Below, piece after piece: positions 6,169 to 57,775 of a stretch of DNA of 64,000 nucleotides; the first letter of the stretch is position 1, and every line of letters starts with the position of its first letter. Made by a program: the position numbers and the translations under genes. Under the pieces are notes generated by a model, which was given only the letters and a program-made list of their open reading frames with translations, was not told the origin of the DNA and ran no database searches. The stretch spans positions 1-64,000 of IMG/VR virus record IMGVR_UViG_3300025869_000011; one strand, 5' to 3'. Source of the stretch: a virus.

Positions 6169-7575
6169 ATGCTTTTAGACATTACACAAGAAGATCGCCA
6201 ACTATGGGTATCATATTTTAATCTTGACGGTAAAACAAGATTTAAGACTTATGATCTTAAACCAGAAGATATGTTTAATTGGGAAGTATGTGATGAATCG
6301 GATCCTAATGCTGACTCTAAAATAAAAAACTGGGATGGTCGCCCAGTCAAAAAGGCAAGATCTAGGTGGTTAAATAAGTATAGGATTATTGAATACATGG
6401 ATCAACTATCTTTTTCTGATAGGGAATTAATTTTTGGTTATCATTTTCCAAGAACTTATTTTGTAGATATTGAAGTTGAGGTAACTGATTCTTTCCCTGA
6501 ACCAAGTAAAGCACCAAACCCAGTTACTACAATTTGTATTGTTACTCCAGAAAAACAATGTATTGTTTTAGCAACTAAAGATTTAGATAATCAAACTCAA
6601 ACTAAAATACAAAAACAAATCGACGAACACTTTAAAGATATCGATGATGATTTTTCATTTACTTTTAAATGTTTTAAATCTGAATATGATATGATGTCAA
6701 CTTTTATGATGTCATTTGTTCAGAAATTCCCAATGATGACAGGTTGGAATTATATAAAATTTGATTGGCAGTATATTATTAATAGGTGTAAAAAGCTTGG
6801 TGTTGATATTGGTTCGGCTTCACCTATAGGTAGAAATTTTGGAAGAGATGAATTTCCTTGCCACGTAGGTGTAATGGATTATTTAGATATTTATGCAAAG
6901 TGGGATAGAACCGTTGATATTAAAGAAGACTTTAAATTAGATACTGTAGGAGAAGCCGTAGTAGGAATTAAGAAAGTTAAATATGAAGGTACTATCCAAG
7001 ATATGTATGAAAAGGATTATCCTAAATATGTTTTCTATAATGTAATTGATACAGCATTAGTTTATCTTATTCATCAAAAGATTAAGACAATGGATATTGC
7101 ATTAACTATTGCTCATATGACTCAAATTAGTATTTTTAAAGCAGCATCACCAGTCGCAATTACTGAAGCACTATTGGCAAGAGAATTTCTAACCAGAAAT
7201 TTAGTAATGGCAAAAGATCCTAAAGCACCACCATCTAAAAGAGAGCAGTTCGAAGGAGCCTTCGTAAAAGAGCCAATAACTGGTATGCATAACGCAGTAG
7301 CTGCATTTGATTTTGCTTCTCTATATCCTTCTATAATGAGACAGTTAAATGTTTCGCCAGAAAGCTTTAAGAAAAAAGTATCACCTGAAAAAAGAAGCGC
7401 TGAAAGAGGTGAGAATAATATTGTGTCGGTTACTGGTGCTGTGTATGATACTGAAAGATCTATACTAAAGGATGTTCTTACAAGGTTATATGATCAGCGA
7501 AAAGAATATAAGAAAGAATCTTTTAGACTGCAACAAAAAGCATACGATTTGGAACAAGAACTAAAAAAGTCTTAA
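6169..7575 (+). CDS. Family-B DNA polymerase, N-terminal half (gp43A-like)
   Basis: ExoI DIEV, ExoII GWNYIKFDW, ExoIII YNVID, motif A FDFASLYPSIM; ends in the fingers helix. Confidence 0.93.
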   Translation: MLLDITQEDRQLWVSYFNLDGKTRFKTYDLKPEDMFNWEVCDESDPNADSKIKNWDGRPVKKARSRWLNKYRIIEYMDQLSFSDRELIFGYHFPRTYFVDIEVEVTDSFPEPSKAPNPVTTICIVTPEKQCIVLATKDLDNQTQTKIQKQIDEHFKDIDDDFSFTFKCFKSEYDMMSTFMMSFVQKFPMMTGWNYIKFDWQYIINRCKKLGVDIGSASPIGRNFGRDEFPCHVGVMDYLDIYAKWDRTVDIKEDFKLDTVGEAVVGIKKVKYEGTIQDMYEKDYPKYVFYNVIDTALVYLIHQKIKTMDIALTIAHMTQISIFKAASPVAITEALLAREFLTRNLVMAKDPKAPPSKREQFEGAFVKEPITGMHNAVAAFDFASLYPSIMRQLNVSPESFKKKVSPEKRSAERGENNIVSVTGAVYDTERSILKDVLTRLYDQRKEYKKESFRLQQKAYDLEQELKKS

Positions 7576-17385: not shown

Positions 17386-18651
17386 ATGAAAGAGAATGTA
17401 AAAAAGATTGGTTTTTTTAAATTAGGTAAAGCCATAAAGTTTAATGAAAACAGTTGGAGCGCAATCGGTGGTGATTGTGAACCTAAGCAATTAATTTGTT
17501 CAATTGCAAACAGAAATCCTAATATCGAATATTGGCTATTAAGCCCAAATGATTTAGGTAAGTTTAGAGCAAAACAAAAACCTAAAGTAAATTCTTTATT
17601 CGGCCCACCGCAAACAGATGAACCTATAGTTCCTAATAATATTAAAGAATTTCATTCTACTATGAAAGAGAGAAAGTCTACTGATGAAACTGTTGAAATT
17701 ATTCAAGGTTTAGATTTAGATTTTATTTTCTTTTATACTGGTCCAACAAGTACTGTTAATATTCCAGAGTATATCAACAAGAAGGATGGTACTGGTCAAG
17801 TTAAATCGTTGGATTTCTTTAAGTATTATGCAGCTCCAATTATTAAAGCGATGAATGAATTGGAAAAGAAAGTTCCTATTGTAGGTTTACTTGTTGATAA
17901 CCGATATGTTCTTGCGTGTAAGGATTGGAGTATAAATAATAGACCAACCTATTACTTAGCACAAAATACATTTACTAAAGAAGAACAATATTTCTGTAAT
18001 CCACCACTGAGAGATGTTAAAACAATTACATCTACATATGAATATTCAGGTATTGAAACAGTATTTCTTTTAGATAAGAAAAGATATGATACTGATGAAT
18101 TATTTAAAATGAAAAAGACCAATTCATTTATGATGCTACAGAATCAAGGTAAAGGTTCAGGTGGAATGGATCGTTGGGATCCAGTAAAAGAATACATTGT
18201 TGATCAAGAAATAGAAACTGATATCTATGGTAAATGGGATGATGAGATTAAAGAAAAGTATCCTAAATGGTTTAAAGGAGAAACTAGAATCGAAACAATG
18301 ACCGATGAATTACTCGGTACTAAATATACATTCTGTGTACCTATTAAAGAAGGTATGGTAACCTCTAAGTATGCTGAAATGCTACACTATGGTATTATAC
18401 CTTTCTTACACCCATCTTACGATACTGACTTTAATGTATTCCCTGAAGGTCATTTTATTAGATGTAAATCAGCAGAAGATTTAAAAAAGAAAATTGAATT
18501 CTTAAATGCAAACCCGGAGCATTATAAGAAATTATTTTATAACCTACAAGAAAAGTATCTTAAGGATTCTTATTATACTGGAGAGCATGTAGATAACAAG
18601 ATCTGGGAATCTTATGAAAGAGTAACTAAAACTGAAACCGTAAATGTATAA
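17386..18651 (+). CDS. GT-B glycosyltransferase, distantly T4 beta-glucosyltransferase-like
   Basis: N-terminal KLG...GGD.E; DIYGKW; C-terminal VTSKYAEML..GIIPFL...YD. Confidence 0.6.
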   Translation: MKENVKKIGFFKLGKAIKFNENSWSAIGGDCEPKQLICSIANRNPNIEYWLLSPNDLGKFRAKQKPKVNSLFGPPQTDEPIVPNNIKEFHSTMKERKSTDETVEIIQGLDLDFIFFYTGPTSTVNIPEYINKKDGTGQVKSLDFFKYYAAPIIKAMNELEKKVPIVGLLVDNRYVLACKDWSINNRPTYYLAQNTFTKEEQYFCNPPLRDVKTITSTYEYSGIETVFLLDKKRYDTDELFKMKKTNSFMMLQNQGKGSGGMDRWDPVKEYIVDQEIETDIYGKWDDEIKEKYPKWFKGETRIETMTDELLGTKYTFCVPIKEGMVTSKYAEMLHYGIIPFLHPSYDTDFNVFPEGHFIRCKSAEDLKKKIEFLNANPEHYKKLFYNLQEKYLKDSYYTGEHVDNKIWESYERVTKTETVNV

Positions 18652-19666
18652 TTCTGAAACAAAAATCCTAGTCACCGGTGGTGCTGGGTTCGTTGGTACA
18701 AATTTTATCAATGATTTATTAAATAGAGGACATAATCCTAAATGTATTGCAGTGATCGATAATATGGAACACGGTACTTATATACCTAAAGTCCATGATC
18801 AAATTGAAAATTTTCATAAAGTAGATATTAGAAATCAATATGTAGAAAACATTATTCAGGATTTTGCACCTGATTATGTTTATCACTTCGCTGGCTTGGT
18901 TTCTATTTATGACTGTCATGAAGATCCATACGAAGCTGTAGATAATAATATCTTAGGAAGTATTAATGTAATGAATGGTTGTGTAAAGGCAGATGTAAAA
19001 AGAATTATCTTTAGTGAAACTTCTGCTGTATATGAAAATTGTGAAATGCCTAAAGAAGGGTTTAACGAGAATCAATCTGATCCTACTACAATTTATTCTA
19101 CAACTAAAGCATGCCTTGCCTTATTAGCAGAATCATACCAGAGAACTAAAGGTTTAAATTATACTGCATTGAGATACTTTAATGTTGCTGGGCCACTTCA
19201 AGACTATAATAGAACCATACCTCCTGTATTCGCTGGATTTATTTTAAGAATTAAAGGTAATCATAATCCTATAGTGTTTGGTGATTATATGAAGGCAAGA
19301 GATTATATTGATGTATCTGATGTTAATGCATTCCACATTCTTTGTATGGAAAATGAAGATACCGCAAACCAAACCTTTAATTTAGGAACCGGTAAAATGA
19401 CAAATCTAATGGATCTTAAAAATATGATTGGTGATATTATGGGAGTTGGTGAACCTGTGTTTGATCATTACGATCCGATTGCAGGTGAGGCTTTAAATAT
19501 CAGAGGGGATATCTCCAAAGCTAAATCGATGGGATGGGAACCTAAAAAAGATATAAGAGATACTATAAAAGAAACTATTGTTTATCTTGAAGAAGAAATT
19601 AATCAAGGTACAATTGACCCTTTAACTTTTATGGAAGATTTAGAAATTGAAAAAGTAAAAATATAA
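18644..19666 (+). CDS. NAD-dependent nucleotide-sugar epimerase/dehydratase
   Basis: TGGAGFVG, YSTTK, LRYFNVAG, RDYIDVSD. Confidence 0.92.
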   Translation: MYNSETKILVTGGAGFVGTNFINDLLNRGHNPKCIAVIDNMEHGTYIPKVHDQIENFHKVDIRNQYVENIIQDFAPDYVYHFAGLVSIYDCHEDPYEAVDNNILGSINVMNGCVKADVKRIIFSETSAVYENCEMPKEGFNENQSDPTTIYSTTKACLALLAESYQRTKGLNYTALRYFNVAGPLQDYNRTIPPVFAGFILRIKGNHNPIVFGDYMKARDYIDVSDVNAFHILCMENEDTANQTFNLGTGKMTNLMDLKNMIGDIMGVGEPVFDHYDPIAGEALNIRGDISKAKSMGWEPKKDIRDTIKETIVYLEEEINQGTIDPLTFMEDLEIEKVKI

Positions 19667-19667
19667 T

Positions 19668-20930
19668 ATGGAAAAAGAATTAAAATGGGGTACTATAATT
19701 CCACTGATTGGTGGTAGTGCTATAGGATGTAAAAAATCTGCAGGTAACGAACCTGCATTTCATTTAAGTTATGATGCGTTTGCTGCTAATGAAAGTCATA
19801 TTGAAAAATATTGGCCTGATGTACCTATGTATAGGTTAGATCATGAAGATTTAGAAATTCCTAAACAAACCTTTAACGAAGTAGATTATGTAAATTCAGT
19901 TTGTCCTTGTGCAGGGTTATCACAATTAAATTCTGCAAGAGGAACGTCTGCTTCTCGTGGATCTGGTGCTACTCAAAATCAATGGATGTATAATTCATCA
20001 GAATATATTTTAGAAAACGTAAAACCTAAAGTACTTTGGGGTGAGAATGCACCTGGTCTTTTTACTAAGATGGGAGAAGGTGTTGTTGACAGGTTAAGAG
20101 AAATAGGCGAAAAATATGGCTATAGTTTTTCTTTAATTAAAACAAACACCGAGCTTCATGGAATTCCACAAAGAAGAATGAGAACTTTTTATTTCTTTTG
20201 GAATACACCAACTGTACCTATGTTAAGTTGGAAATTCAGAGAAAAGAAATTACTAATTGATTATCTTAATGAAATTCCTAAGGATGCTACACACCAAGAT
20301 ATGTTTATGGTTGAAGGTAAAGTCACAGATCATTTTACACCTTATGAATATGTTTTAGAAAAGGAAGGTTTAACTCATGCTGAATTTGCTGCAAAATTTA
20401 AAAAAGGAACTATTGCACAGTACTTAGAAAAAAATGAACTTATTGATGACTGTATTAAATGGTTAGAAAAACATTATCCTAAAAGAGGGTTTTCAAATAA
20501 AAAATCTACAAAGACTTTTATTGATATGTTAGAGCACCAACAATATAAAACAAGTCAAGGATTAGGTTATTGGGATGCATCCCCGCATTTCTTTCACGAT
20601 TCTTTTTCTGCTCTTATTGGTAGAAATATGTTTAATGGTGTACACCCAGTAGAAAACAGATATCTTAATGTTAGAGAAATGCTTCACTTAATGGGACTTC
20701 CTTTAGACTTCGGTATTGAAAGCTCAAGACAAGTAAATCATATTGCTCAAAATGTACCTGTTACAACTGCTATGGATATGGCTGATGAGGTAAAGAAATT
20801 TTGTAAAGGCGAGGCTAAGATGACTAATTTTACATTTCTGAAACAAGATAACACAAGTCATAAAATTATTGATTCTGTTGAAATTGGATCAGAACCTAAA
20901 AAGAAATATAAAGTAAAAAGTATAATTTAA
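19668..20930 (+). CDS. DNA cytosine-C5 methyltransferase-like protein with atypical cofactor motifs
   Basis: PC catalytic motif (CPCAGLS), ENAP, PQRRMR, RYLNVRE..LMGLP; motif I is IPLIGG instead of FxGxG. Confidence 0.82.
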   Translation: MEKELKWGTIIPLIGGSAIGCKKSAGNEPAFHLSYDAFAANESHIEKYWPDVPMYRLDHEDLEIPKQTFNEVDYVNSVCPCAGLSQLNSARGTSASRGSGATQNQWMYNSSEYILENVKPKVLWGENAPGLFTKMGEGVVDRLREIGEKYGYSFSLIKTNTELHGIPQRRMRTFYFFWNTPTVPMLSWKFREKKLLIDYLNEIPKDATHQDMFMVEGKVTDHFTPYEYVLEKEGLTHAEFAAKFKKGTIAQYLEKNELIDDCIKWLEKHYPKRGFSNKKSTKTFIDMLEHQQYKTSQGLGYWDASPHFFHDSFSALIGRNMFNGVHPVENRYLNVREMLHLMGLPLDFGIESSRQVNHIAQNVPVTTAMDMADEVKKFCKGEAKMTNFTFLKQDNTSHKIIDSVEIGSEPKKKYKVKSII

Positions 20931-20932
20931 TT

Positions 20933-21937
20933 ATGAAAGATAACGCATTAGCAATAGGAATATCTAGTTTAGAGTTTACCAATATCTTATGTAGTTATTA
21001 TCCTAAAGGGATCAAAGAAAATTTTGATATTTACTTATTTGTTGATAATAATAAAATAGACATAGATAAACTTCAGTGCATTTTTAAAGAGCATGATTTA
21101 GATATTTTTATTAATGCTAAAATTATTATCTTAAAGGATGTATATGATCATTATATAGAAAAGCATCAATATAAAGGTAATGCAAAAAAGTTTCTATTAA
21201 ATCATGGTTGTTTATTTAAAATTCTAATGCCTATTTATCTAAGAGAAATGTTTGGTGTTAAAAGAACATATGTTTCCGATGATGATGTATTTATCCTAAA
21301 TGATCTCAGTTATATGTGGACTAAATATAAAGAGTTCGGTATTAAGAAGGAAAACTTATTTTACATTAGAAATAAAAATAAGTATGATGTAATGAATGCC
21401 TTCAATGAAATATTTGAATCTGATTTTACTTTGGATCAAATGAATGGTCTAGCAATAAATGCAGGTAATATTATTTATGACGAAGACCCTAAGTTAGAAT
21501 ATTACTTTGAGCGGTTTATGAAGCACCCATTTATTCATCATATGTTTTTTGATTTTACAGGTTATACGAGCTGGACAGTAGAACAGAGGTTTCATCATTT
21601 TAATATTCATAGATATTTAGCAGAAGGAAAGGAAGTTAAATTTTTAGAAAGTAAAGACTTAAGACTAATGCAAAATCTTGATAAAGATATGAAGGCTGGT
21701 GAGCCACCTGAAAAATATTTAAAAGAAGTCGTACCATCCTTAATCCATTATGCAATAGGCACAAAAAAACCTTTATGGTTAAATGATTTTTTACCAGGTC
21801 TTAAATGGAGATATGGTTTTGACTATAAGGCCAAATATGAATTAAAGGATATTCTATATAATAAAGATTGGCGACCACCATCCTTTAAAAGTGTACAGAA
21901 AAAACAAACAGCATTAAAAATTAAGTCTGTATTTTAA
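20933..21937 (+). CDS. Putative GT-A (GT8-like) glycosyltransferase
   Basis: YVSDDDVFILNDL (DxD), INAG, EQ, IHYA...KP. Confidence 0.6.
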   Translation: MKDNALAIGISSLEFTNILCSYYPKGIKENFDIYLFVDNNKIDIDKLQCIFKEHDLDIFINAKIIILKDVYDHYIEKHQYKGNAKKFLLNHGCLFKILMPIYLREMFGVKRTYVSDDDVFILNDLSYMWTKYKEFGIKKENLFYIRNKNKYDVMNAFNEIFESDFTLDQMNGLAINAGNIIYDEDPKLEYYFERFMKHPFIHHMFFDFTGYTSWTVEQRFHHFNIHRYLAEGKEVKFLESKDLRLMQNLDKDMKAGEPPEKYLKEVVPSLIHYAIGTKKPLWLNDFLPGLKWRYGFDYKAKYELKDILYNKDWRPPSFKSVQKKQTALKIKSVF

Positions 21938-21988
21938 CTTAAACTAAGTAACAATAATCAATATAATAATAAACAAATAATATTTTAA

Positions 21989-22738
21989 ATGGAAACAAAA
22001 ATTAACAAAATTGACGGTTATGAATTAAGTTCATTCGTTCGCAAACTACTTCCAATTGACAAATTCATCTTTATGAAAATCGCAAAAGAAGGTACTGTAT
22101 CTTCTGTATATTTTCCTGAGAGAGATGCCGTAAAATTGGTTAACACTCCAACTGCTGATATCTTTGATGCTGATATCTCTGAACCTGTAAAGGTAAGCTT
22201 TTATAATGGTACTAAAGTTATTGATGCATTAAGTCATTTTAATGGTGATGTCCAAGGTCGTATTAAGTATACTGAATATGATGGAGAATTAATGGCAAGT
22301 GATTTTATTTTAGAAAATGAAGATCTTCAAATTAATTTGGCATGTACAGATCCTTCATTATCTTTTATGGAAATGAGCAAGGAAGAAACTGATAGAGCAT
22401 TCGGTACAGATTCTAAAATGTTTAGTTTTGATTTACTTACTACTCATGTAGATAAAATGAAATCATTATTTAACTTAGATAAAGATGAAGATATCTTTAC
22501 TCTTTATATAGGAGAAAAAGGTATTAATATTAAAGGTACTTCTTATGATGCTACTTTATGCCACTCTTATGATTCAGATGTAGAAAAAGGTGCAAAAGTT
22601 GTAATTTATAAAAAGTATATTAATCTTTTAGATAAGGAAAATTACAAAGTAAGCGTTTGTGAAAATAAGGTTGTATTTAAATCTTTAGATACTAATACAC
22701 ATCTTACTGTTGCTGTTGCTATTACTGACGAGGATTAA
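21989..22738 (+). CDS. Probable sliding clamp (gp45/PCNA-like)
   Basis: ~250 aa, acidic, two-domain alpha/beta periodicity; adjacent to the polymerase C-half; clamp loader present. Confidence 0.6.
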   Translation: METKINKIDGYELSSFVRKLLPIDKFIFMKIAKEGTVSSVYFPERDAVKLVNTPTADIFDADISEPVKVSFYNGTKVIDALSHFNGDVQGRIKYTEYDGELMASDFILENEDLQINLACTDPSLSFMEMSKEETDRAFGTDSKMFSFDLLTTHVDKMKSLFNLDKDEDIFTLYIGEKGINIKGTSYDATLCHSYDSDVEKGAKVVIYKKYINLLDKENYKVSVCENKVVFKSLDTNTHLTVAVAITDED

Positions 22739-22753
22739 TACTGCATCTAATTA

Positions 22754-22785
22754 TTTAAAGGGCATCATAATCGGTGCCCTTTAAA
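22754..22785 (+). terminator. Hairpin terminator overlapping the next middle promoter
   Basis: tttaaagggca...tgccctttaaa. Confidence 0.7.
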
Positions 22786-22816
22786 CTTTCTTTAATCTTA
22801 CCGTATAAAAATAAAA

Positions 22817-23935
22817 ATGACAGAGGAATTACAAAAAATTAACGAAGAGGCATCTAAGTTTTATAATTATGAACAGGCAGTTAAGTTAATGCTTAACTCT
22901 ATTTACGGCGCATTTGGTAATCCTTATTTTTATTTCTTTAATGTTGATATTGCTGAAACTATTACACTCCAAGGTAAAGATGCAATTTTATATACCGAAC
23001 AATTAGTTAATAAGTATTTTAAAGAGTTTTGGCATAAAGATCTACCAGCTCACGCTGCTATGGGTATTACTGTAACAGGTAAAATTGAAAAACCAGTAGG
23101 TATTTATATTGATACAGATTCAGTGTATGTTAAATTTGATGAAGTAATTCAAAAGTCGGAAGGCTGGAACGGTGATGAAAAAGAATTTATACTTAAGCTT
23201 TATAAGGTTAGGTTAAATGGTTATATAGAAAAGATTCTACAAAAATATGCAGACGATAATAATGCAGAAAACTTTTTATCTTTTGAATTAGAAAGTATTG
23301 CTAAAAATGCAATATGGTTGGCAAAGAAAAAGTATATGCAGAATATAGTTTGGAAGGATCCGGATATTCACTATGATGATCTTTCTAAAATTAGTTCAAA
23401 AGGATTTGAAATCATTCAGTCATCTACTCCTATTTTTGCAAGAGAAAAATTAAAAGAACTATTAACTTACATATTTTCTGTAAGTGAATTAGATATGGGA
23501 GCATTTGCATCTTTGCTTAAGGATGTTAAAAGACAATTTAGATTAGCAAATGTTGATCAAATCAGTTTTTCAAGAAAGGTTAATAATTATCAAAAGTATA
23601 TTGTAAATGATTATGAACAATTTGAGATCGCATCAAAATGCCCAATCGGCGTAAGATCTGCAGGTTATCATAATTACTTATTAAACAATTCAGGCAAAAA
23701 AGGTAAATACCAACCATTAGGAAACGGGGAAAAATGTAAAATGTATTTTTCTGAAGATAATTCCTGTGATGTATTTGCATATGCACCTGGAGATTATCCT
23801 TATGAATTCGCGCCTAAGATTGATTACGATCGACAATTCGAAAAAACAATATTAGATCCTATAAACAGAGTTGTTACTGCTATGGGATTTAAGGGATTCA
23901 ATAGAAACTTGATTTATACTACAAGTTTATTTTAA
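22817..23935 (+). CDS. Family-B DNA polymerase, C-terminal half (gp43B-like)
   Basis: Motif B KLMLNSIYGAFGN, motif C YIDTDSVY, KKKY, KGFE. Confidence 0.93.
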   Translation: MTEELQKINEEASKFYNYEQAVKLMLNSIYGAFGNPYFYFFNVDIAETITLQGKDAILYTEQLVNKYFKEFWHKDLPAHAAMGITVTGKIEKPVGIYIDTDSVYVKFDEVIQKSEGWNGDEKEFILKLYKVRLNGYIEKILQKYADDNNAENFLSFELESIAKNAIWLAKKKYMQNIVWKDPDIHYDDLSKISSKGFEIIQSSTPIFAREKLKELLTYIFSVSELDMGAFASLLKDVKRQFRLANVDQISFSRKVNNYQKYIVNDYEQFEIASKCPIGVRSAGYHNYLLNNSGKKGKYQPLGNGEKCKMYFSEDNSCDVFAYAPGDYPYEFAPKIDYDRQFEKTILDPINRVVTAMGFKGFNRNLIYTTSLF

Positions 23936-23948
23936 AAAAAATTATGTT

Positions 23949-25568
23949 ATGAAAAACCCAGATAAATTAAACAGAAAAGATATAAGCAATTTATGTAAAT
24001 TAGCGCTAGATAAAGGTGGTGATTTAGTTCCATTAAAAATTCCTTCGTCAGAATCATTAGGTGAAGGATTGACTAATGGTTCGATTCTTTTTCATAAAGA
24101 TAAATGGCTTCTTAATTTAAGGAGAGTTGGATATCTATTTTATCAATCTGAAAATAAACAAAAATTCCCATGCCCTTGGGGTCCTTTAGTTTATTTAAAT
24201 CCAGAAAATGATGTAGTATTAAGAACTACAAATTATATCTGTGATTTAAATAGTGATACTCTTGAGGTTGATAAATGGAGAAAAACAGATACTACATTAT
24301 TAGATAGACCACCATTATGGGAATTTATTGGATTAGAGGATGCCCGTTTACAATTTTGGGATAACAAATTATATCAAACGGGCGTGCGACGTGACACTAC
24401 AGTCAATGGGCAAGGTAGAATGGAATTATCTACAATTAAGAATGACGAGTCTTGTATGGAGATTGATAGAGTAAGAATAGAGCCTCCTAATGATCCTACT
24501 TCTTATTGTGAAAAAAATTGGATGGCTATAAATGATATGCCATACCATTATATTAAATGGTCAAGCCCAACAGAATTAGTAAAGGTAGATCCTAATAAAG
24601 GTACTTCAGAATTAGTAAAAATTGTAGACCAATCTCATATTAAAACAAAAAGAGATATGAGAGGTTCTTCTAATATAATTAAATATAAAGATTACTGGGT
24701 AGGAATAATTCATGAAGTAGATCTTTGGTTTAATTCGGAATCTCAAAAAGACTCAATTTATTATCACAGATTTGTTGTTTGGGATAAAGATTGGAAAATT
24801 AAATATATTAGTGATGAATTTGATTTTATGACTGGGCGAGTTGAATTCACTTGTGGTATTGCATTTGACGAAAAGACTAATAACTTTTTAATACCATTTG
24901 GATTTCAAGATCATACTTCATTTATGTTAAGTTTACCTGAATCTGTATTTAGGGAAGTTACTAATATGGAGCCTATAAAAACCAAAGAAAGCGTAAAGAA
25001 AACCACTAAACATAAAACACTTCATAATTTCATTCATAATCCATTTAATGCTAAGGCTGCGTTTAAACTTGGGGAGGGGTATTTTAAAGAAGGTCATTGG
25101 GGATCTGCTTTAGGTTTCTTTTTAAGAGCAGCGGAATATACTGATGATTTAGATCTTCAATACGAGTCATTTTTCATGGTGTGTAGATGTCTTGCAAATA
25201 AAGGTGGTCGTGATGAATGTGAACAAAAAATGTGGTTGCAATTAATTTCATTAGATCCTACTCGACCTGAAGGTTATGGTGCAATGTCTTCATATTATTC
25301 ATGGAGAGGTAATTATCATAATGCTTATTTTTATAGTAACCTAGGTTATACTTTAGGTAAAGAATGCAAGCCTATGATAAAATCTACTGGTGCTATAATT
25401 AGTAAATCACCTCTATTAAAGCAAACTAAATTATTTGGATCATCTTATGGTTTAATGAAAGATAAATTAGAAATACTTAAAGATTTTATATCTAACCCTA
25501 AAAATCATAATCCGGCATTACATGCATTTATGTCACAAGAAGCAGTAAAGTATAAACTTGTACAATAA
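23949..25568 (+). CDS. Beta-propeller glycosidase-like domain + TPR repeats
   Basis: GLEDARL, EKNW, RGSS, YYHRF, VEF..G; C-terminal TPR-like helices. Confidence 0.6.
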   Translation: MKNPDKLNRKDISNLCKLALDKGGDLVPLKIPSSESLGEGLTNGSILFHKDKWLLNLRRVGYLFYQSENKQKFPCPWGPLVYLNPENDVVLRTTNYICDLNSDTLEVDKWRKTDTTLLDRPPLWEFIGLEDARLQFWDNKLYQTGVRRDTTVNGQGRMELSTIKNDESCMEIDRVRIEPPNDPTSYCEKNWMAINDMPYHYIKWSSPTELVKVDPNKGTSELVKIVDQSHIKTKRDMRGSSNIIKYKDYWVGIIHEVDLWFNSESQKDSIYYHRFVVWDKDWKIKYISDEFDFMTGRVEFTCGIAFDEKTNNFLIPFGFQDHTSFMLSLPESVFREVTNMEPIKTKESVKKTTKHKTLHNFIHNPFNAKAAFKLGEGYFKEGHWGSALGFFLRAAEYTDDLDLQYESFFMVCRCLANKGGRDECEQKMWLQLISLDPTRPEGYGAMSSYYSWRGNYHNAYFYSNLGYTLGKECKPMIKSTGAIISKSPLLKQTKLFGSSYGLMKDKLEILKDFISNPKNHNPALHAFMSQEAVKYKLVQ

Positions 25569-29169: not shown

Positions 29170-29667
29170 ATGTGGGGAAAAAAGAAAAAACCTAAATTAG
29201 ATGAAAACGGAAAACCTATTCCACCTAAATTAGCAGACAAAGATAAAATTTTTAATAATTCATACGGTGATCAGGATATTACTGAAAACCGAGTTAACTT
29301 TACTGTTGCTGCAACTTATGGTGATAGTATGGATCCTGATGATAGGATGCACTATGAATTACTAATTAAGAAGATTGATAAAATTATAAAGGGTAGTGAA
29401 TATGAGCATTTAAATGAAGCTACGCCAGAAGGAGTAATTAAGAAATTAAATAAAGTACAAATCAATAGAGTATATTCTCATATCATAGAAAAGATTGGGG
29501 ATGGGTATACAAGAGTTGATTTGTTTAGTGTTATATCAGATTACTTTGATGTATTCCCTAATAAATTTTATAATTCTCTTTCTAATAAATTTAAAGATGA
29601 ACTTATTAAAGAATTGGACGATAAGTATAATATCTTAGAAAAAAGAAAAATCAGAAAATTATTTTAA
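29170..29667 (+). CDS. Hypothetical helical protein ending KIRKLF
   Basis: ORF within the replication operon. Confidence 0.7.
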   Translation: MWGKKKKPKLDENGKPIPPKLADKDKIFNNSYGDQDITENRVNFTVAATYGDSMDPDDRMHYELLIKKIDKIIKGSEYEHLNEATPEGVIKKLNKVQINRVYSHIIEKIGDGYTRVDLFSVISDYFDVFPNKFYNSLSNKFKDELIKELDDKYNILEKRKIRKLF

Positions 29668-35491: not shown

Positions 35492-35857
35492 ATGGCAAGA
35501 AAAAGAAATTATCTAAATAATAGAGATCTTTTAGAACAAATAATATTATCCAAAGAACAAGATGAGCTCACCCCAAAGGCATTAGAATTTTTAATGTTAT
35601 TAGCAGACAAATGTTCTAGGAAATTATCATACGCAAATCCAGACGATAGACAAGACTGTATAGCATCTGCTTATATGGACTTATTTAAATATTGGAGAAA
35701 CTTTAATCCAGAAAAATCAACTAATGCCTTCGCTTATTTTACTGAAATATGTAAAAGAGGATTTGCAAAAGGTTGGAATAAATTACATCCTAGGAAATAC
35801 GCTGGTACTGTATCAATTAATGGTAGCGCTGATAGCGACGGTATTTATACAATATAA
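35492..35857 (+). CDS. gp55-like late sigma factor
   Basis: YLNN.DL, NFNPEKSTNAFAYFTEI. Confidence 0.85.
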   Translation: MARKRNYLNNRDLLEQIILSKEQDELTPKALEFLMLLADKCSRKLSYANPDDRQDCIASAYMDLFKYWRNFNPEKSTNAFAYFTEICKRGFAKGWNKLHPRKYAGTVSINGSADSDGIYTI

Positions 35858-35864
35858 ATTTTAA

Positions 35865-36344
35865 ATGAGCATTAAAAAGGTAAAACCTACTTCTAAGTCA
35901 GGATTTAAACAAGGTTATTATAATCCTGTTAATCCACAAAAGTATATAGGAGAACATCCTATCATATACAGAAGTAGCTGGGAAAGAAAGTTTTGCCATT
36001 GGTGTGATCATAATGATGAAGTATTAAAATGGGCATCTGAACCATTCTCAGTAAAATACTTTAATATGTTAGATAAAAAGTTTCATAATTATTACCCAGA
36101 CTTTTATATGAAGATGAATAAAGGCGAAGGTATAATTGAAGAATTTGTAGTAGAGATAAAACCTAAGGCACAATTACAAAAACCAAAGGCCCCAAAAAGA
36201 AAAACACCAAAGGCACTAAAGAATTTTAAACATGGATATGAAACTTATGTTAGGAACCTTTGTAAAACTGAAGCATTAAATAAAATGGCTAAATTAAGAA
36301 ATTTTAAAGTTATGCTATTAACCGAAGACTCAAAATTGTTTTAA
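35865..36344 (+). CDS. gp4-like head completion nuclease
   Basis: YRSSWERKF..WCD, WASE, YYPDF, EIKP. Confidence 0.88.
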   Translation: MSIKKVKPTSKSGFKQGYYNPVNPQKYIGEHPIIYRSSWERKFCHWCDHNDEVLKWASEPFSVKYFNMLDKKFHNYYPDFYMKMNKGEGIIEEFVVEIKPKAQLQKPKAPKRKTPKALKNFKHGYETYVRNLCKTEALNKMAKLRNFKVMLLTEDSKLF

Positions 36345-43441: not shown

Positions 43442-43933
43442 ATGTATAAAGTTCGTAAAATAAACTTTGGTTGGTATAAAAGGAGGCATGGTATTCTATT
43501 AGAAAATCTGCCTCCTTTAAAGCAAAAACTTTTATTGGAACATAATCATATGAAATGGTTAGATTCTGATATACAAGCCTTTGAGATTATATTTAAAGTT
43601 GAGGATATGAATGAGCATGAAAAGAATCCTAATCGTATACTTTGGAATCCTTTTAGAGAAACGTTTACAAACATTAAAGAATTAGAAAAAGACTCGGATC
43701 TCGTTGACTGGAATTGTGGAATATGTAAAGCTGGAATTAAATCAAGAATGGATTCTAGGAAGGTTGAAAATTTTGTTTGTAGTAAATGCGTGGAGTCTCA
43801 TAACTCACGGAACAGCAGAGTTGACCAAAGAATAATAGATTCCTCTGTTAAATTTATGAAGCACTGTAAATCCTTACTAAAAGGTGAACAGAGGGAGTTT
43901 ATGACTTACATAAGAAGATCATCAAAAGCGTAA
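43442..43933 (+). CDS. Hypothetical protein with CxxC...CxxC zinc ribbon
   Basis: CGIC...CSKC. Confidence 0.7.
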   Translation: MYKVRKINFGWYKRRHGILLENLPPLKQKLLLEHNHMKWLDSDIQAFEIIFKVEDMNEHEKNPNRILWNPFRETFTNIKELEKDSDLVDWNCGICKAGIKSRMDSRKVENFVCSKCVESHNSRNSRVDQRIIDSSVKFMKHCKSLLKGEQREFMTYIRRSSKA

Positions 43934-44710
43934 AGCTTCTTCTATAGTTATTTTTTTAAATGCATTTAAATTACTAGATGGGCATGCATTTAAAATTTCT
44001 ATTCCACTTCCATTAAGATCACGTTTAAGCAAATCAAACGCAGGTATAAATTGATCTTTATAAATATTAACACCTGTAGTATTTACTGGATAGCCATCGT
44101 GGAAGTGACTTTCCTTTCCTACATTACCCATATCATATCCTAATAAGATAATTCTTTTAGCACCTAAATGAATTGCTAAATTAATTGCAGCATAACCACT
44201 ATTTCCACCGTGTGCTATTTCATCTTTTTGTTTTGACAATCCATTCTTACTTCCTCTTTTTAAAAGTTTAATACTTTCGTTATGATCTTTATTAGGTGTA
44301 ATAGTATACTTCAAACCACTATAAGACATTATTTCTTTTCTAAGCCATCTGAATACTCTAGAATCTGTCCAATATAAAGCTGTTGGGTTATTATAATATT
44401 TTATAGCTTTATTAATAGCTATAGTTTTTTTATTAGATAATAAATTCCACTTAAATCCTTTTAGTGAAGGGCCTCCACCAATAATGTAAACAGTTTCCCC
44501 AGCCCACAACGGTGTAATAGTATGATATTTTAAATCTTTCTTTAGTGGTGTCTTTAGTCTAACTGGATTAGGATTTACTTTAGTAGGTACTTTATGGTGA
44601 GAATTAGTGTTTATAATTTTACCTCTCTTTACATTAGTCTTAATGTTCTTAGAAGATTCAGCTGGTACGGATATATTTACCACCTTTCTAATTCGTCGGC
44701 CCTTTCTCAT
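43922..44710 (-). CDS. Maf/DUF115 (CstII-like fold) putative glycosyltransferase
   Basis: IIGGGPSL, IAIN, NSGYAAINLAIHLGAKRIILLGYDM; the only credible minus-strand gene. Confidence 0.7.
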   Translation of the reverse strand: MRKGRRIRKVVNISVPAESSKNIKTNVKRGKIINTNSHHKVPTKVNPNPVRLKTPLKKDLKYHTITPLWAGETVYIIGGGPSLKGFKWNLLSNKKTIAINKAIKYYNNPTALYWTDSRVFRWLRKEIMSYSGLKYTITPNKDHNESIKLLKRGSKNGLSKQKDEIAHGGNSGYAAINLAIHLGAKRIILLGYDMGNVGKESHFHDGYPVNTTGVNIYKDQFIPAFDLLKRDLNGSGIEILNACPSSNLNAFKKITIEEALRF

Positions 44711-44785: not shown

Positions 44786-45748
44786 ATGAAGAATATCCAA
44801 AACATACTATTAACAGAGAAGTACAGGCCACAATCCTTAGATGATTTGATTACACCACAGAGAGTTGGTGAGAAATTAAGTAAAGGAGTTTATCAACATT
44901 TACTATTACATGGCAGTCCAGGTACCGGTAAAACTTCTGCTGCTAAGGCTTTAGTGAAACATTTTAAGCATCCTTATTTATACATTAATGCATCAACCGA
45001 TACATCAGTAGATGTTGTAAGAAATAGAATTACTGACTTTTGTGCTAATCGTTCTATAATGGATGAACCAGGAAAAATGAAGGTAATTATACTTGATGAG
45101 ATTGATGGTGTATCTGATCAATTCTTTAAAGCGTTAAGGGCTACAATGGATCAGTTTGCTGTTAATGCAAGATTCGTTGCAACATGTAATTATATCAATA
45201 AAGTACCAGATCCAATTCAATCTAGGTTTGAAATGATTGATTTTGATTTTTCTAAAGAAGAAGAAACTGAAATAATGAAAAGTTACATTATGAGGATTTT
45301 TCAAATCTGTAAAGAAGAAGGTATTGGTATCGATAAACATGCAGCTGTTGAATTAGTAAAAAGAAAATTTCCTGATTTAAGAAACATGTTAAATCAATTA
45401 CAAGGATTTAAATCACAAGGCGTAGAAACTATAACTGTTGAAAACATTAAACAATTTAGTTCTGTGTATAGAGATATTTACGACCTCGTAATCGATGGAG
45501 AAGATCCTGTAAAAAATTATCAATACATGTTATCTAATTATGCAAATAGAACTGATGATGTTTTATCTTCATTAGGTGCGGAGTTTATAGATTTTATAAA
45601 ACAAGATAGGCAATCATACACTCAATTTATTCCACAGATAATTGTAACAGTTGCAAAATATCAAGCACAAAGACAACAAGTAATAGATCCTGCAGTATCA
45701 ATGCTTGCTTGTATTTATGAACTGCAAACAATAGTTAATGGGGCATGA
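44786..45748 (+). CDS. Clamp loader large subunit gp44 (RFC-like)
   Basis: EKYRP, GSPGTGKT, INAS, LDEID, PIQSR. Confidence 0.94.
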   Translation: MKNIQNILLTEKYRPQSLDDLITPQRVGEKLSKGVYQHLLLHGSPGTGKTSAAKALVKHFKHPYLYINASTDTSVDVVRNRITDFCANRSIMDEPGKMKVIILDEIDGVSDQFFKALRATMDQFAVNARFVATCNYINKVPDPIQSRFEMIDFDFSKEEETEIMKSYIMRIFQICKEEGIGIDKHAAVELVKRKFPDLRNMLNQLQGFKSQGVETITVENIKQFSSVYRDIYDLVIDGEDPVKNYQYMLSNYANRTDDVLSSLGAEFIDFIKQDRQSYTQFIPQIIVTVAKYQAQRQQVIDPAVSMLACIYELQTIVNGA

Positions 45749-45933: not shown

Positions 45934-47157
45934 ATGAAAAAAACAGGCAGACATACATTTGTTATAGATGGTAATTATTTTCTGTTTAGAACATTATATG
46001 TAATTCCTAGCAGATCAAAAAAGGCAGGTCTATTAGGAACAGAAGAAGACGTACAAGCTTTTGTCAAAAAATTGGCAACTGACTTTGCATATCAAATCAG
46101 ATTATTCGAAGGTCTTATCGACAAGGTTGTTTGGACGGTAGATTCAAGATCATGGAGAAAAGACTTTTACCCAGATGCAGAATATAAAGGTAATCGTAAA
46201 CAGAATGATGCCCTCAACTGGGAAAACTTTTCAAAGGCAACAGCTGACTTTATTTCTATCTTATCTAAGCAAGGTGTTATTATTTCTAAAATAGACGGTG
46301 CTGAAGGTGATGATTTAATGTATGCATGGAATACTGAATGTCTTGCAAATGACAAATCAGTTATTATGTTTACTGGTGACAGGGACTTAGTTCAATTAGT
46401 AGATAAGAGTACAAATAACAATACACATACTATTCTATTCTCACCTGCTCATAAAAAATTATATACTTATCAAGGTTTTTCTGAATGGATGGATTCACAA
46501 ACAGAAGAAGAACAATCTGATGATATATTTGATGTACTAAAAACTTCTGTATCACCAGAGAATCAGGCTAAAAAATTACTTAAAGCTTTGGTTGCAAAGA
46601 AAAAGGTTTCTATTATAGAAGTTGACCCTGAAGACTTCCGTTTTCGTAAAGTACTTACTGGAGATTCAGGAGACAATGTACCACCTGCATATTACTATCA
46701 AAAAGGCAACAGACGATATGGCATCAGCGAGAAAAAGGCAACTGCTATTATTGCAGAGTTCAAAGAAAAGCATGGCCACTTATCTCATATGTATCTTTAC
46801 AACGATGAGTATATTACTGATCTTGCAAATATGACCGTAAGAGTTATGAATGCAAAACATATGAGCAGAGAACAGATTATTTCTAATCTAAAATCCAATG
46901 TTAATCTTATGGTACTTGCTGCTGAATCTATACCAGAAGGTATCCTAGACGAAATGTTTAAATCTGTCGAATCTAAAATGAATGTAAAAGGTTTACAATT
47001 AAAGACAATTTCTACAATGAAATCTATTTTGGAAAATACTGAATATGCAAAAGAAACTGATAGTTCATTTAAATCTTCTTTCTTTAAAGATGATGATACT
47101 GATTCAAGTGACATGTCTTTTATAAAAGGTAGCAAATCACAGGATAAGATTTTTTAA
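45934..47157 (+). CDS. rnh: T4 RNase H-like 5'-3' exonuclease
   Basis: IDGNY, SWRK..YP..YKGNR, EGDD, TGDRD..QL, GDSGDNVP. Confidence 0.9.
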   Translation: MKKTGRHTFVIDGNYFLFRTLYVIPSRSKKAGLLGTEEDVQAFVKKLATDFAYQIRLFEGLIDKVVWTVDSRSWRKDFYPDAEYKGNRKQNDALNWENFSKATADFISILSKQGVIISKIDGAEGDDLMYAWNTECLANDKSVIMFTGDRDLVQLVDKSTNNNTHTILFSPAHKKLYTYQGFSEWMDSQTEEEQSDDIFDVLKTSVSPENQAKKLLKALVAKKKVSIIEVDPEDFRFRKVLTGDSGDNVPPAYYYQKGNRRYGISEKKATAIIAEFKEKHGHLSHMYLYNDEYITDLANMTVRVMNAKHMSREQIISNLKSNVNLMVLAAESIPEGILDEMFKSVESKMNVKGLQLKTISTMKSILENTEYAKETDSSFKSSFFKDDDTDSSDMSFIKGSKSQDKIF

Positions 47158-47196: not shown

Positions 47197-47613
47197 ATGA
47201 AATTATTTGATTATATAAAAGTTCTTTTTGGTAAGGATGCACACTGGGAAAATGTAAGTGGTTATGATAAGTCTAAAAATTCTTTTATGACTAATCGATT
47301 CATGAGTATTAAATTTCCAATACAGGCAAATCTCTTTAATACTCTTAAAATTGATCCAATTGGTCAAGCAGAGGCATGGAGATTAGTTTCGTCTAAATTT
47401 AATAGAGTACCTGGTTTTATTTACACAAAGGTAAAAAAATCAGCAAAGCAAAAAGCAAAAGAATGGTCGCCTAACCCTAAGGCTTTAGAATTGTATATGA
47501 AATTTAACGAAATAGGAGAAAGAGAATATAAAGAAGCATTAAAAATTAACCCATCACAAGTACAGTCCTCGATAGATATATTAGAAAAACAGATGGGAAA
47601 TGATGTTAATTGA
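47197..47613 (+). CDS. Probable clamp loader small subunit gp62
   Basis: LFDYI...FM.NRFMS pattern; size and context. Confidence 0.55.
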   Translation: MKLFDYIKVLFGKDAHWENVSGYDKSKNSFMTNRFMSIKFPIQANLFNTLKIDPIGQAEAWRLVSSKFNRVPGFIYTKVKKSAKQKAKEWSPNPKALELYMKFNEIGEREYKEALKINPSQVQSSIDILEKQMGNDVN

Positions 47614-48268
47614 TAATACCTTTGAATTAGGAATACCTACACATATACAGTTTACTTTATTTAAATATGATTACTTTGATAGTATCATAATTACTAGAGT
47701 AAAAAAAGAGTGCAAAAACATATCTAAAGTTAACGGCGAATTTACTGTTACTAAGTCATCTTTCTTAAATGCTATAAAAACTAGTAAAAGAATTAAAGCT
47801 GAGATTGAAAAGGCAGAAGATTTTGGATACATACCAATCCCTTCAATAAAACCTAACTCTGTTTACTTTTTAACTTCTATTTTTAGCAGATTACCTAATC
47901 TTAACACATTAACATTTAAGATTAATAATGATAAGAAATATACTCGTTTAATTAAAAATACAGCAGGTCATGATATAATAAGTTTTCATTTTAATATCAT
48001 TGAAGGTATATTTGATTTAACTAAGGTAATGGATAGAAAAGAATTAGATATTTTTAATAAAACTCTTATAGAATTTAAAATATTAGAAAATAAGTATTTA
48101 AGTAGGAAACCATACTTTTATATGAAAGCTACTGCTATTATAGATATTTTAACTGTCATGGAAGCTGAAGGTAAATTAAGTACATTTAATATCTTGGATC
48201 ACATAGATGATAAGTTAGAAGAAGATGATCCTATACTAATTGTAAAGACTGATTATACCCCTTTTTAA
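47600..48268 (+). CDS. Hypothetical protein
   Basis: ORF only. Confidence 0.65.
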   Translation: MMLIDNTFELGIPTHIQFTLFKYDYFDSIIITRVKKECKNISKVNGEFTVTKSSFLNAIKTSKRIKAEIEKAEDFGYIPIPSIKPNSVYFLTSIFSRLPNLNTLTFKINNDKKYTRLIKNTAGHDIISFHFNIIEGIFDLTKVMDRKELDIFNKTLIEFKILENKYLSRKPYFYMKATAIIDILTVMEAEGKLSTFNILDHIDDKLEEDDPILIVKTDYTPF

Positions 48269-57220: not shown

Positions 57221-57775
57221 ATGCCACTACCACATTATACCCAGTCAAGGGCCAGTAGCCAAAGGTACGAACCTATTCAGCCTAACCTATTTGAGGTGAC
57301 TGTATTTTCACCACTAGGGGATGATACGGGTTTAATCTTAGAGCAAGTTAAAACTATCGGAGGTTTAAATAACTTAAACCCATCTGTAGATGCAGTAGGT
57401 CAAAAATATAAATTTGCTGACCGTTCATTTGCAAGTATGCCAGGTCAGACCTTTTTAGATCTGACTATTAACTTTAGTCTTAACTTAAACGAAGCTAACG
57501 AAAATTACATTTACAATACATTCCGTAATTGGTATAAATTAATCTATGATCCATTAACTGGTGAAATGGGATTAAAGAAAGACTATGTTGGAAGTATGAT
57601 CATTGTACAATATAACAGAGCAGGAGATATCTTTAGAAAGATTACCTGTAAAGATGTATTCCCTACAGGTCAACCTGATTTTGTAGATGAATTGAATTAT
57701 GAAACTCCAGATCCTGCTGAGTTAACAATGACTTATCGTTGTGATCACTGGGTTGAGGAAAATGTAGGTGCATAA
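57221..57775 (+). CDS. Tail tube protein gp19
   Basis: NLFEV, W..LIYDP.TG, QYNRAG, FP; follows the sheath gene. Confidence 0.88.
   Translation: MPLPHYTQSRASSQRYEPIQPNLFEVTVFSPLGDDTGLILEQVKTIGGLNNLNPSVDAVGQKYKFADRSFASMPGQTFLDLTINFSLNLNEANENYIYNTFRNWYKLIYDPLTGEMGLKKDYVGSMIIVQYNRAGDIFRKITCKDVFPTGQPDFVDELNYETPDPAELTMTYRCDHWVEENVGA

Follow-up and report, generated by a model that had tools for sequence, protein, structure and literature searches.

How a phage brings its DNA-modification enzymes to newly made DNA is the question raised by a locus in IMG/VR virus record IMGVR_UViG_3300025869_000011, of which we analysed positions 1 to 64,000 (hereafter the window). The window covers the first 64 kb of a viral contig of 77,872 bp with a G+C content of about 30% and with genes almost all on the plus strand, and the source phage is a marine T4-like myovirus. 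Three putative modification proteins are encoded near a candidate sliding clamp gene: a GT-B-like putative glycosyltransferase, a C5-cytosine-methylase-family protein (hereafter MTase-like) and a glycosyltransferase of the GT-A type. Short peptides that resemble the C-terminal end of the phage's own DNA polymerase occur in these proteins. Hypermodified DNA is one of the major means by which phages counter host nucleases. To our knowledge, it is mostly unclear how the modification enzymes reach new DNA fast enough, and the one known case is the binding of the T4 alpha-glucosyltransferase (alpha-GT) to the clamp gp45, for which there is no defined motif.

Our reading, to which we give a probability of roughly two in three, is that the shared tail is a clamp-docking peptide that would place the modification enzymes on replicating DNA. 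That these enzymes share a predicted docking peptide with the polymerase is strongly supported by cross-genome comparison. The clamp as partner of the tail we infer by analogy with gp43 and gp45 of T4 and RB69, and we also infer that DNA is the acceptor and what the modification chemistry is. In the mechanism that we propose, [K/T/S]-[S/K]-[L/I/V]-F-COOH would be this lineage's version of the T4-type polymerase clamp-docking peptide. The peptide would also serve the FEN/RNase H-type exonuclease, the topoisomerase II large subunit, the gp4-like nuclease and the 29170 protein, all described below. It would have been added to the DNA-modification module in three forms, namely as a clean tail on GT-A, as an internal loop copy in the GT-B-like protein and as a degenerate K-S-I-I on the MTase-like protein. 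The flexible tail would insert into a hydrophobic pocket of the PCNA-like trimer that the product of 21989-22738 would form, and the enzymes would thus be held on newly replicated DNA. This DNA probably contains 5-hydroxymethylcytosine (hmC) made by a dCMP-hydroxymethylase-like enzyme of the contig, and its modification would follow directly behind the fork.

The polymerase-type tail and its carriers

Every peptide quoted in an earlier, sequence-only reading of the window was found at the position given for it. The open reading frames (ORFs) at 19668-20930 (MTase-like), 20933-21937 (GT-A), 22817-23935 (C-terminal half of the family B polymerase, PolB), 45934-47157 (FEN/RNase H) and 29170-29667 end with KVKSII, KIKSVF, YTTSLF, SQDKIF and KIRKLF, respectively. 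The strongest evidence that such endings belong together is their covariation with the polymerase tail in other lineages. A second lineage of 80 loci was recovered with the protein P0253 as query (searches for related loci with the single queries P0214 and P0222 returned no loci), and its polymerase was located in six long contigs. Every polymerase found there, six by search and nine within loci, ends with SLESFFM, TIEDFFS or TLESFF[MV]. Of the 80 GT-B homologues of this lineage, which are 29-33% identical to that of the window, 71 end with TLEDFFG or TLADFFV; all 78 MTase-like homologues (35-36% identical) end with NLEEFFG, TLEGFFV or TLEEFFA. These tails are acidic, and the motif is otherwise almost absent among the 1,184 ORFs of the second-lineage loci. 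In a 218-kb genome of the lineage that CheckV rates complete, [ST]LxxFF[x] ends 3 of 281 ORFs, which are the polymerase, the GT-B and the MTase-like protein.

A third lineage, represented by loci L042 and L043, has yet another form. Its polymerase C-part ends with RTQLF, and the adjacent proteins of the module end with KAKSLF (GT-B), NKQLF (a 251-residue protein of no assigned function) and KSKNLF (MTase-like). Judged from these sequences, the tails of the modification enzymes appear to track the type of the polymerase tail and not the phylogeny of the catalytic domains. Among other phages, the polymerase of Pelagibacter phage Mosig ends with SLEAFFG and a cyanophage gp43 ends with ITSFFG. The polymerase-tail rule is frequent and not universal, and the exceptions are given where the docking reading is weighed. 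One further small protein was observed: a 77-residue ORF on the minus strand of G005, a member of the second lineage (57293-57526, within L247), ends with KKMEDFYKATDED, which recalls the SLDFLYEAND end of T4 gp55. Its product may be a small transcription factor with which that lineage binds the clamp.

Within the contig itself, a C-terminal [SKTN][ILVM]F was counted in 6 of the 85 plausible ORFs when 0.27 would be expected from its internal frequency; the nominal p value of 3e-7 is only a guide because the motif pattern was defined after looking. The six carriers are the C-terminal half of PolB, FEN/RNase H, the topoisomerase II large subunit, the gp4-like nuclease, the 29170 protein and GT-A. 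Among the contig ORFs, the related loci and a 181-kb relative, no capsid or tail protein ends with [SKTN][LIV]F. Both the count and this absence agree with the sequence-only reading, which had overlooked three further carriers, at 35865-36344 in the window and at 64832-66709 and 74384-74836 of the contig. Conservation in homologues also bears the reading out, since the tails are kept on divergent, floppy linkers. In 147 related IMG/VR loci the motif is present in 100% of the distinct homologue tail variants of the carrier families and absent from other families. The carrier families also have it in the 181-kb relative, where no additional [SKTNQ][ILVM]F carriers were found.

The polymerase C-terminal half (22817-23935, plus strand; Pfam DNA_pol_B, 2.4e-19; phrog_1918, 1.3e-66) provides the reference tail, NLIYTTSLF, and TT[SN]LF ends 13 of 13 distinct variants among the homologues in related loci. 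The FEN/RNase H-type 5'-3' exonuclease (45934-47157, plus strand; Pfam 5_3_exonuc_N, 1e-15) ends with SQDKIF, and all 42 distinct tail variants of its homologues end with [GDKN]K[IM]F. The ORF at 29170-29667 (plus strand) encodes a 165-residue protein of no assigned function that ends with RKIRKLF; it has no match in Pfam, PHROGs or Atlas, and its tail is kept in 7 of 7 distinct homologue variants. The gp4-like head-completion nuclease (35865-36344, plus strand) belongs to a TnsA-like fold family (Pfam Tn7_TnsA-like_N, 1.4e-14; phrog_218 'head closure', 2.9e-43). It ends with EDSKLF, with S[KN]LF in 9 of 9 distinct homologue variants, and a polymerase-type ending was unexpected on this morphogenesis protein. 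Just beyond the window, a topoisomerase II large (GyrB-like) subunit at contig positions 64832-66709 (L001:832-2709) ends with KSLF, and [KN]SLF is found in 9 of 9 distinct variants of its homologues. We know of no description of a clamp association for any phage topoisomerase. A seventh, carrier-like ORF at contig positions 74384-74836 encodes a 150-residue protein of no assigned function that ends with TLIF and for which Pfam and PHROGs gave no match.

We also considered the motif as a marker of late or structural proteins. This was rejected as it is absent from capsid and tail proteins, with the caveat that the gp4-like head-completion nuclease does carry it.

Putative modification enzymes, candidate clamp and gene neighbourhood

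The sequence-only reading held that all three modification enzymes share a clamp-type peptide. For GT-A this is well supported; for the GT-B loop it is plausible, and the case is weaker for the KSII end of the MTase-like protein.

The GT-A gene (20933-21937, plus strand) has no Pfam sequence match, and its assignment was confirmed by the fold model, a Rossmann-like GT-A fold that matches GT8-type enzymes. Foldseek matches are xyloside xylosyltransferase XXYLT1, glycogenin, LgtC and LARGE1, with E values of 7e-8 to 1e-5 and TM scores of 0.4-0.5, and an acidic DxD-type site is present, with D117 and D118 invariant in 39 homologues. The tail occupies residues about 320-334 (nucleotides 21890-21934). 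An x[LVI]F end is kept in about 52 of 62 homologues, which reach down to 42% identity, and the exceptions are mostly fragments; within the window lineage the form is K[ST]S[VL]F. The 15 or so residues before the end are lysine-rich and otherwise unalignable among homologues. The AlphaFold2 model has a pLDDT of 88 overall; within the final 14 residues it falls to 53 and then to 42. The combination of a kept end, a divergent linker and low pLDDT is the hallmark of a flexibly tethered short linear motif.

For the GT-B-like protein (17386-18651, plus strand), the glycosyltransferase label of the sequence-only reading is retained as putative. What speaks for it is a sub-threshold Pfam match (Glyco_trans_1_2, E 0.003) and its neighbours in Atlas, a language-model resource, which include Glyco_trans_1_2 and T4 beta-glucosyltransferase clusters; no match to Pfam PF11440 and no PDB sequence match were found. 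As a homologue of T4 alpha-GT the protein was rejected at the sequence level (BLASTP E 4.9). Its motif copy is internal. KVNSLF corresponds to residues 67-72 (nucleotides 17584-17601) and begins the inserted loop KVNSLFGPPQTDEPIV (17584-17631, plus strand), which was recognised by alignment to other lineages. Residues 71-82 are a lineage-specific insertion, with a gap opposite them in the sequences of all other lineages. In 21 close homologues the loop is kept as KP[KA]V[NAQ]SLFG[PD]P, after which a variable proline-rich stretch follows. The C-terminal extension that bears the motif elsewhere, where GT-B homologues end with KAKSLF or TLEDFFG, is missing from the GT-B of the window lineage.

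The MTase-like protein (19668-20930, plus strand) is a member of the C5-DNA-methylase family, as had been proposed. It matches Pfam PF00145 at 5.8e-19 with 69.1 bits against a curated cutoff of 22, and it can be aligned to M.HaeIII at its PC, ENA and QxRxR motifs. Both the Pfam and the PDB alignment begin at about residue 56-63, so that the N-terminal region, where AdoMet-binding motif I would lie, is outside the match. The protein ends with PKKKYKVKSII (the final motif at nucleotides 20910-20927), and from comparison with its homologues this KSII tail appears to be a degenerate form of the motif. Close relatives end with KSII, KSVI, QKII or [SRG]TF (e.g. NSTF), and more distant ones with TSLF (L038, 62% identity) or KNLF (L042, 43% identity). 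When the window was compared with loci L019, L020, L022, L024, L028, L031, L032 and L036, it was observed that relatives with GT-A downstream have MTase-like proteins ending with [SKN][IV]I, and those without GT-A have [SRG]TF.

At the level of the family, 125 of the 150 cluster representatives are full length; 33 of these 125 end with x[ILVM]F and 19 with a PIP/T4-like [ST]LxxF[FL]x. On a tree of the representatives built with the tails removed, the tail classes are interspersed, with at least 17-20 parsimony changes, but the tree is a quick FastTree with midpoint root and is only a hint of frequent tail exchange. Some relatives have unusual architectures that look eukaryote-like. P0187 (51% identical to the MTase-like protein) is fused to a zf-CXXC domain, P0308 (34%) is fused to zf-C2H2 and a Tet/JBP oxygenase, and P0184-P0186 (56-60%) contain long extra regions with no Pfam match.

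Evidence on the substrate comes from beyond the window, where a thymidylate synthase homologue is encoded at contig positions 70096-71007 (L001:6096-7007). It is dCMP-hydroxymethylase-like, since against solved structures it matches CMP/dCMP 5-hydroxymethylases at 1e-22 and thymidylate synthases at 1e-11, and its relatives adjoin GT-B and MTase-like genes in distant lineages. Because of this homologue, its gene neighbourhood and the C5-methylase family membership of the MTase-like protein, hmC-type DNA is the likely acceptor of the modification enzymes.

The proposed docking platform is the 249-residue product of 21989-22738 (plus strand), which the sequence-only reading took as the clamp. This holds at the level of the fold. 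The AlphaFold2 model (pLDDT 87.5, pTM 0.83) has the processivity fold, with two topologically repeated beta-alpha-beta-beta-beta domains per subunit. It gave at least 500 Foldseek matches in the PDB at E <= 0.001, and every match among those listed is PCNA or another sliding clamp (E value of 4e-11, TM scores of 0.62-0.71). By sequence, no gp45 or PCNA family was matched in Pfam up to E 10, noise apart, nor was there any PDB sequence match; among PHROGs there was no clamp family and only a borderline match to phrog_16121, whose function is not assigned. A gp44-like large subunit of the clamp loader (44786-45748, plus strand; phrog_168, 1.7e-71) is also encoded, and hence the phage runs its own clamp system. 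The 222-residue product of 47600-48268, which has no database matches, was considered as an alternative clamp and set aside because 21989-22738 is clearly PCNA-like. It is a conserved protein of no assigned function that ends with YTP[YF] and whose gene adjoins that of RNase H.

The surroundings are those of a T4-like phage. Structural genes on the contig include the portal, the prohead protease and the major capsid protein, and replication and recombination genes include gp46/gp47, UvsX, a gp41-like helicase, the gp44-like clamp loader and FEN/RNase H. The family B polymerase is divided between two genes 15 kb apart. The N-terminal (exonuclease) half at 6169-7575 (plus strand; Pfam DNA_pol_B_exo1 and DNA_pol_B) is without the motif, and the other half lies at 22817-23935. 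Between them are a ribonucleotide reductase, a nucleotide-sugar cluster, the three modification proteins and the 21989-22738 clamp gene. The cluster consists of a DAHP_synth_1-family gene, a PseB-like dehydratase, an acetyltransferase, a DegT aminotransferase, a GT2, a HAD, a nucleotidyltransferase and an epimerase. The closest database polymerase, at 59% identity, is that of the 462-kb uncultured phage LR756500; Kyanoviridae polymerases are 31-34% identical. Elsewhere, a separate polymerase C-part (366 residues) was seen in lineage L239 and a single 842-residue gene in its relative G005.

Between the polymerase C-half and UvsX lies an ORF for a 539-residue protein without database matches (23949-25568); it is 51-61% identical in relatives, against 85-99% for the flanking genes, and in some relatives other ORFs replace it. 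The sole sizeable gene on the minus strand, at 43922-44710, is sialyltransferase-like (phrog_4603).

Weighing the docking reading

Several observations weigh against docking on the clamp as we propose it. The motif used for the enrichment count was defined post hoc. The window's own MTase-like tail, KSII, departs from [LIV]F and is close to the VSII end of the major capsid protein. The carriers include a head-completion nuclease and a topoisomerase, neither of which is a known clamp partner. The tails of the window lineage are lysine-rich and basic (KIKSVF, KIRKLF, KVKSII), whereas those of T4 are acidic. The analogy with gp55, which the sequence-only reading had drawn on, is not carried over to the window phage, since its gp55-like late sigma factor (35492-35857, 121 residues) has no such tail and ends with GIYTI; its match to a 181-position profile covers positions 5-108, and the region that holds the C-terminal clamp epitope in T4 gp55 is absent.

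The covariation also has its exceptions. In Pseudoalteromonas phage XG4 the polymerase ends with SLDDLFM, and both the MTase-like protein (KVEDRG) and the GT-B are tail-less. The MTase-like protein of cyanophage S-TIM5 has no tail, locus L044 has these enzymes without tails, and in L038 the MTase-like protein ends with TSLF but the polymerase with ESLVS. Finally, in T4 itself the contact of alpha-GT with gp45 was judged not to be the main determinant of the glucosylation share, the alpha/beta ratio being reported to depend mainly on the expression level (PMC13216743).

Three other readings were considered. If only the clean [L/I/V]F ends work in this phage, the MTase-like KSII and the SLFG loop of GT-B would be remnants or coincidence and GT-A would be the one tethered modification enzyme, through whose binding the other two might reach DNA. 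We regard this as unlikely. The resemblance of KSII to the SII end of the capsid protein speaks for it, together with the drift of MTase tails in close relatives (KSII, KSVI, QKII, NSTF) and their form of [IV]I where GT-A is present and [SRG]TF where it is absent. However, the tail of the MTase-like protein retains the pattern K-x-K-S-hydrophobic-hydrophobic, and its homologues in three other lineages have clean polymerase-type tails. As for GT-B, the loop has an invariant [SP]LFG core followed by variable residues, and the lineage with the inserted loop is also the one that has lost the C-terminal tail seen elsewhere. An explanation in which the endings are not docking motifs at all, but a by-product of AT-rich composition, with TTT preceding the stop codon, or a signal at the C-terminus for protein stability or degradation, is highly improbable in our view. 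It can draw on the general over-representation of Phe as last residue (13 observed and 4.1 expected among the contig ORFs), which includes metabolic enzymes ending with GKF and VKF. It cannot explain why the tail type switches along with the polymerase tail in other lineages, or why the motif is restricted to the polymerase, the GT-B and the MTase-like protein in the 281-ORF genome, and [SKTN][LIV]F stands on no capsid or tail protein.

The tail could also dock on another hub of the replisome, such as the single-stranded DNA-binding protein, the helicase or the clamp loader, and the enzymes would still reach replicating DNA. The basic tails differ from the acidic, hydrophobic clamp epitope of T4, and the topoisomerase and the head-completion nuclease are not classical clamp clients, both of which leave room for such a hub. 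We nevertheless consider it quite unlikely, because the C-terminal tail of the family B polymerase is an experimentally defined clamp epitope in T4 and RB69 (PMC2988020), the [ST]LExFF of the second lineage closely resembles SLDFLFG of T4, and FEN-1 and PolB bind PCNA by C-terminal tails in solved complexes (1rxm, 3a2f).

Beyond this phage, docking on the clamp may be an instance of a general rule for large T4-like phages, on which we are evenly divided. Under such a rule, tails that copy the clamp-docking peptide of the resident polymerase would recruit post-replicative DNA hypermodification enzymes to the fork. With the same even odds, the enzymes concerned would be add-on glycosyltransferases together with a widespread family of C5-methylase-like proteins and its GT-B partner, and the tails of all these enzymes would have been repeatedly gained, swapped or moved into loops as suits the clamp of each phage. 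If the rule is true, a polymerase-type tail could predict which enzymes of uncultured phages act on DNA, and it would explain how nascent DNA is protected before host nucleases arrive. A readable signature, namely a tail matching that of the cognate polymerase, would link a widespread uncultured family of C5-methylase-like proteins and glycosyltransferases to the replisome. If confirmed, it would offer a testable mechanism for replication-coupled modification and a practical marker by which orphan glycosyltransferases of metagenomic phages could be recognised as acting on DNA, and it would extend the clients of viral clamps to topoisomerase II and the head-completion nuclease.

Comparison with known systems

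The nearest parallel is the 'tool-belt' docking of T4 gp43, gp55 and gp33 on the clamp by C-terminal peptides, which is established (PMC2988020). T4 gp43 ends with SLDFLFG and gp55 with SLDFLYEAND, and the C-terminal peptides of the polymerase and gp55 of T4 and RB69 are experimentally defined, interchangeable clamp-binding epitopes, that of gp55 being a linear motif on a flexible tether (PMC2988020). As in those phages, we find a short hydrophobic peptide at or near the C-terminus after a variable flexible linker, and the peptide is common to the polymerase and to unrelated proteins, which in T4 act on clamp-loaded DNA. In the second lineage, [ST]LExFF[x] has almost the same sequence as SLDFLFG. 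The window lineage differs in its shorter, basic K-x-[KT]-S-[LIV]-F-COOH and in its tail-less gp55-like protein. Its candidate clients also differ, being DNA-modification enzymes, a topoisomerase and nucleases, whereas those of T4 are transcription factors.

When compared to the PIP-box clients of PCNA in eukaryotes and archaea, the system is similar in that the clamp would serve as a tool-belt and that Lxx[FY][FY]-type peptides stand at the C-termini of FEN-1 and polymerases. Complexes of PCNA with FEN-1, PolB and RNase HII (1rxm, 3a2f, 3p83) are among the fold matches listed for the 21989-22738 product. Unlike PCNA systems, the viral clamp has no detectable sequence similarity to PCNA and the motif of the window lineage is shortened to the last 3-4 residues. 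The pair of DNMT1 and PCNA is a precedent for a replication-coupled C5-methylase.

The closest functional counterpart is T4 alpha-GT, which binds gp45 (Sommer et al. 2004, as cited), as was confirmed by pull-down in 2026 (PMC13216743). Like the enzymes considered here, whose association we propose from sequence, it is a clamp-associated phage DNA glycosyltransferase proposed to modify hmC DNA during replication. In contrast to the window enzymes, it ends with KEQFDIITK, without a polymerase-type tail, and it has no detectable sequence similarity to the window GT-B-like protein in the BLASTP comparison given above. The evidence here is instead a motif that up to three enzymes share and that covaries with the polymerase tail. 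A literature search found no description of polymerase-mimicking tails on methylase-like or glycosyltransferase enzymes of phages. Therefore, while a clamp-bound phage DNA glycosyltransferase is already known in T4 alpha-GT, the polymerase-type tails on modification enzymes are the new part.

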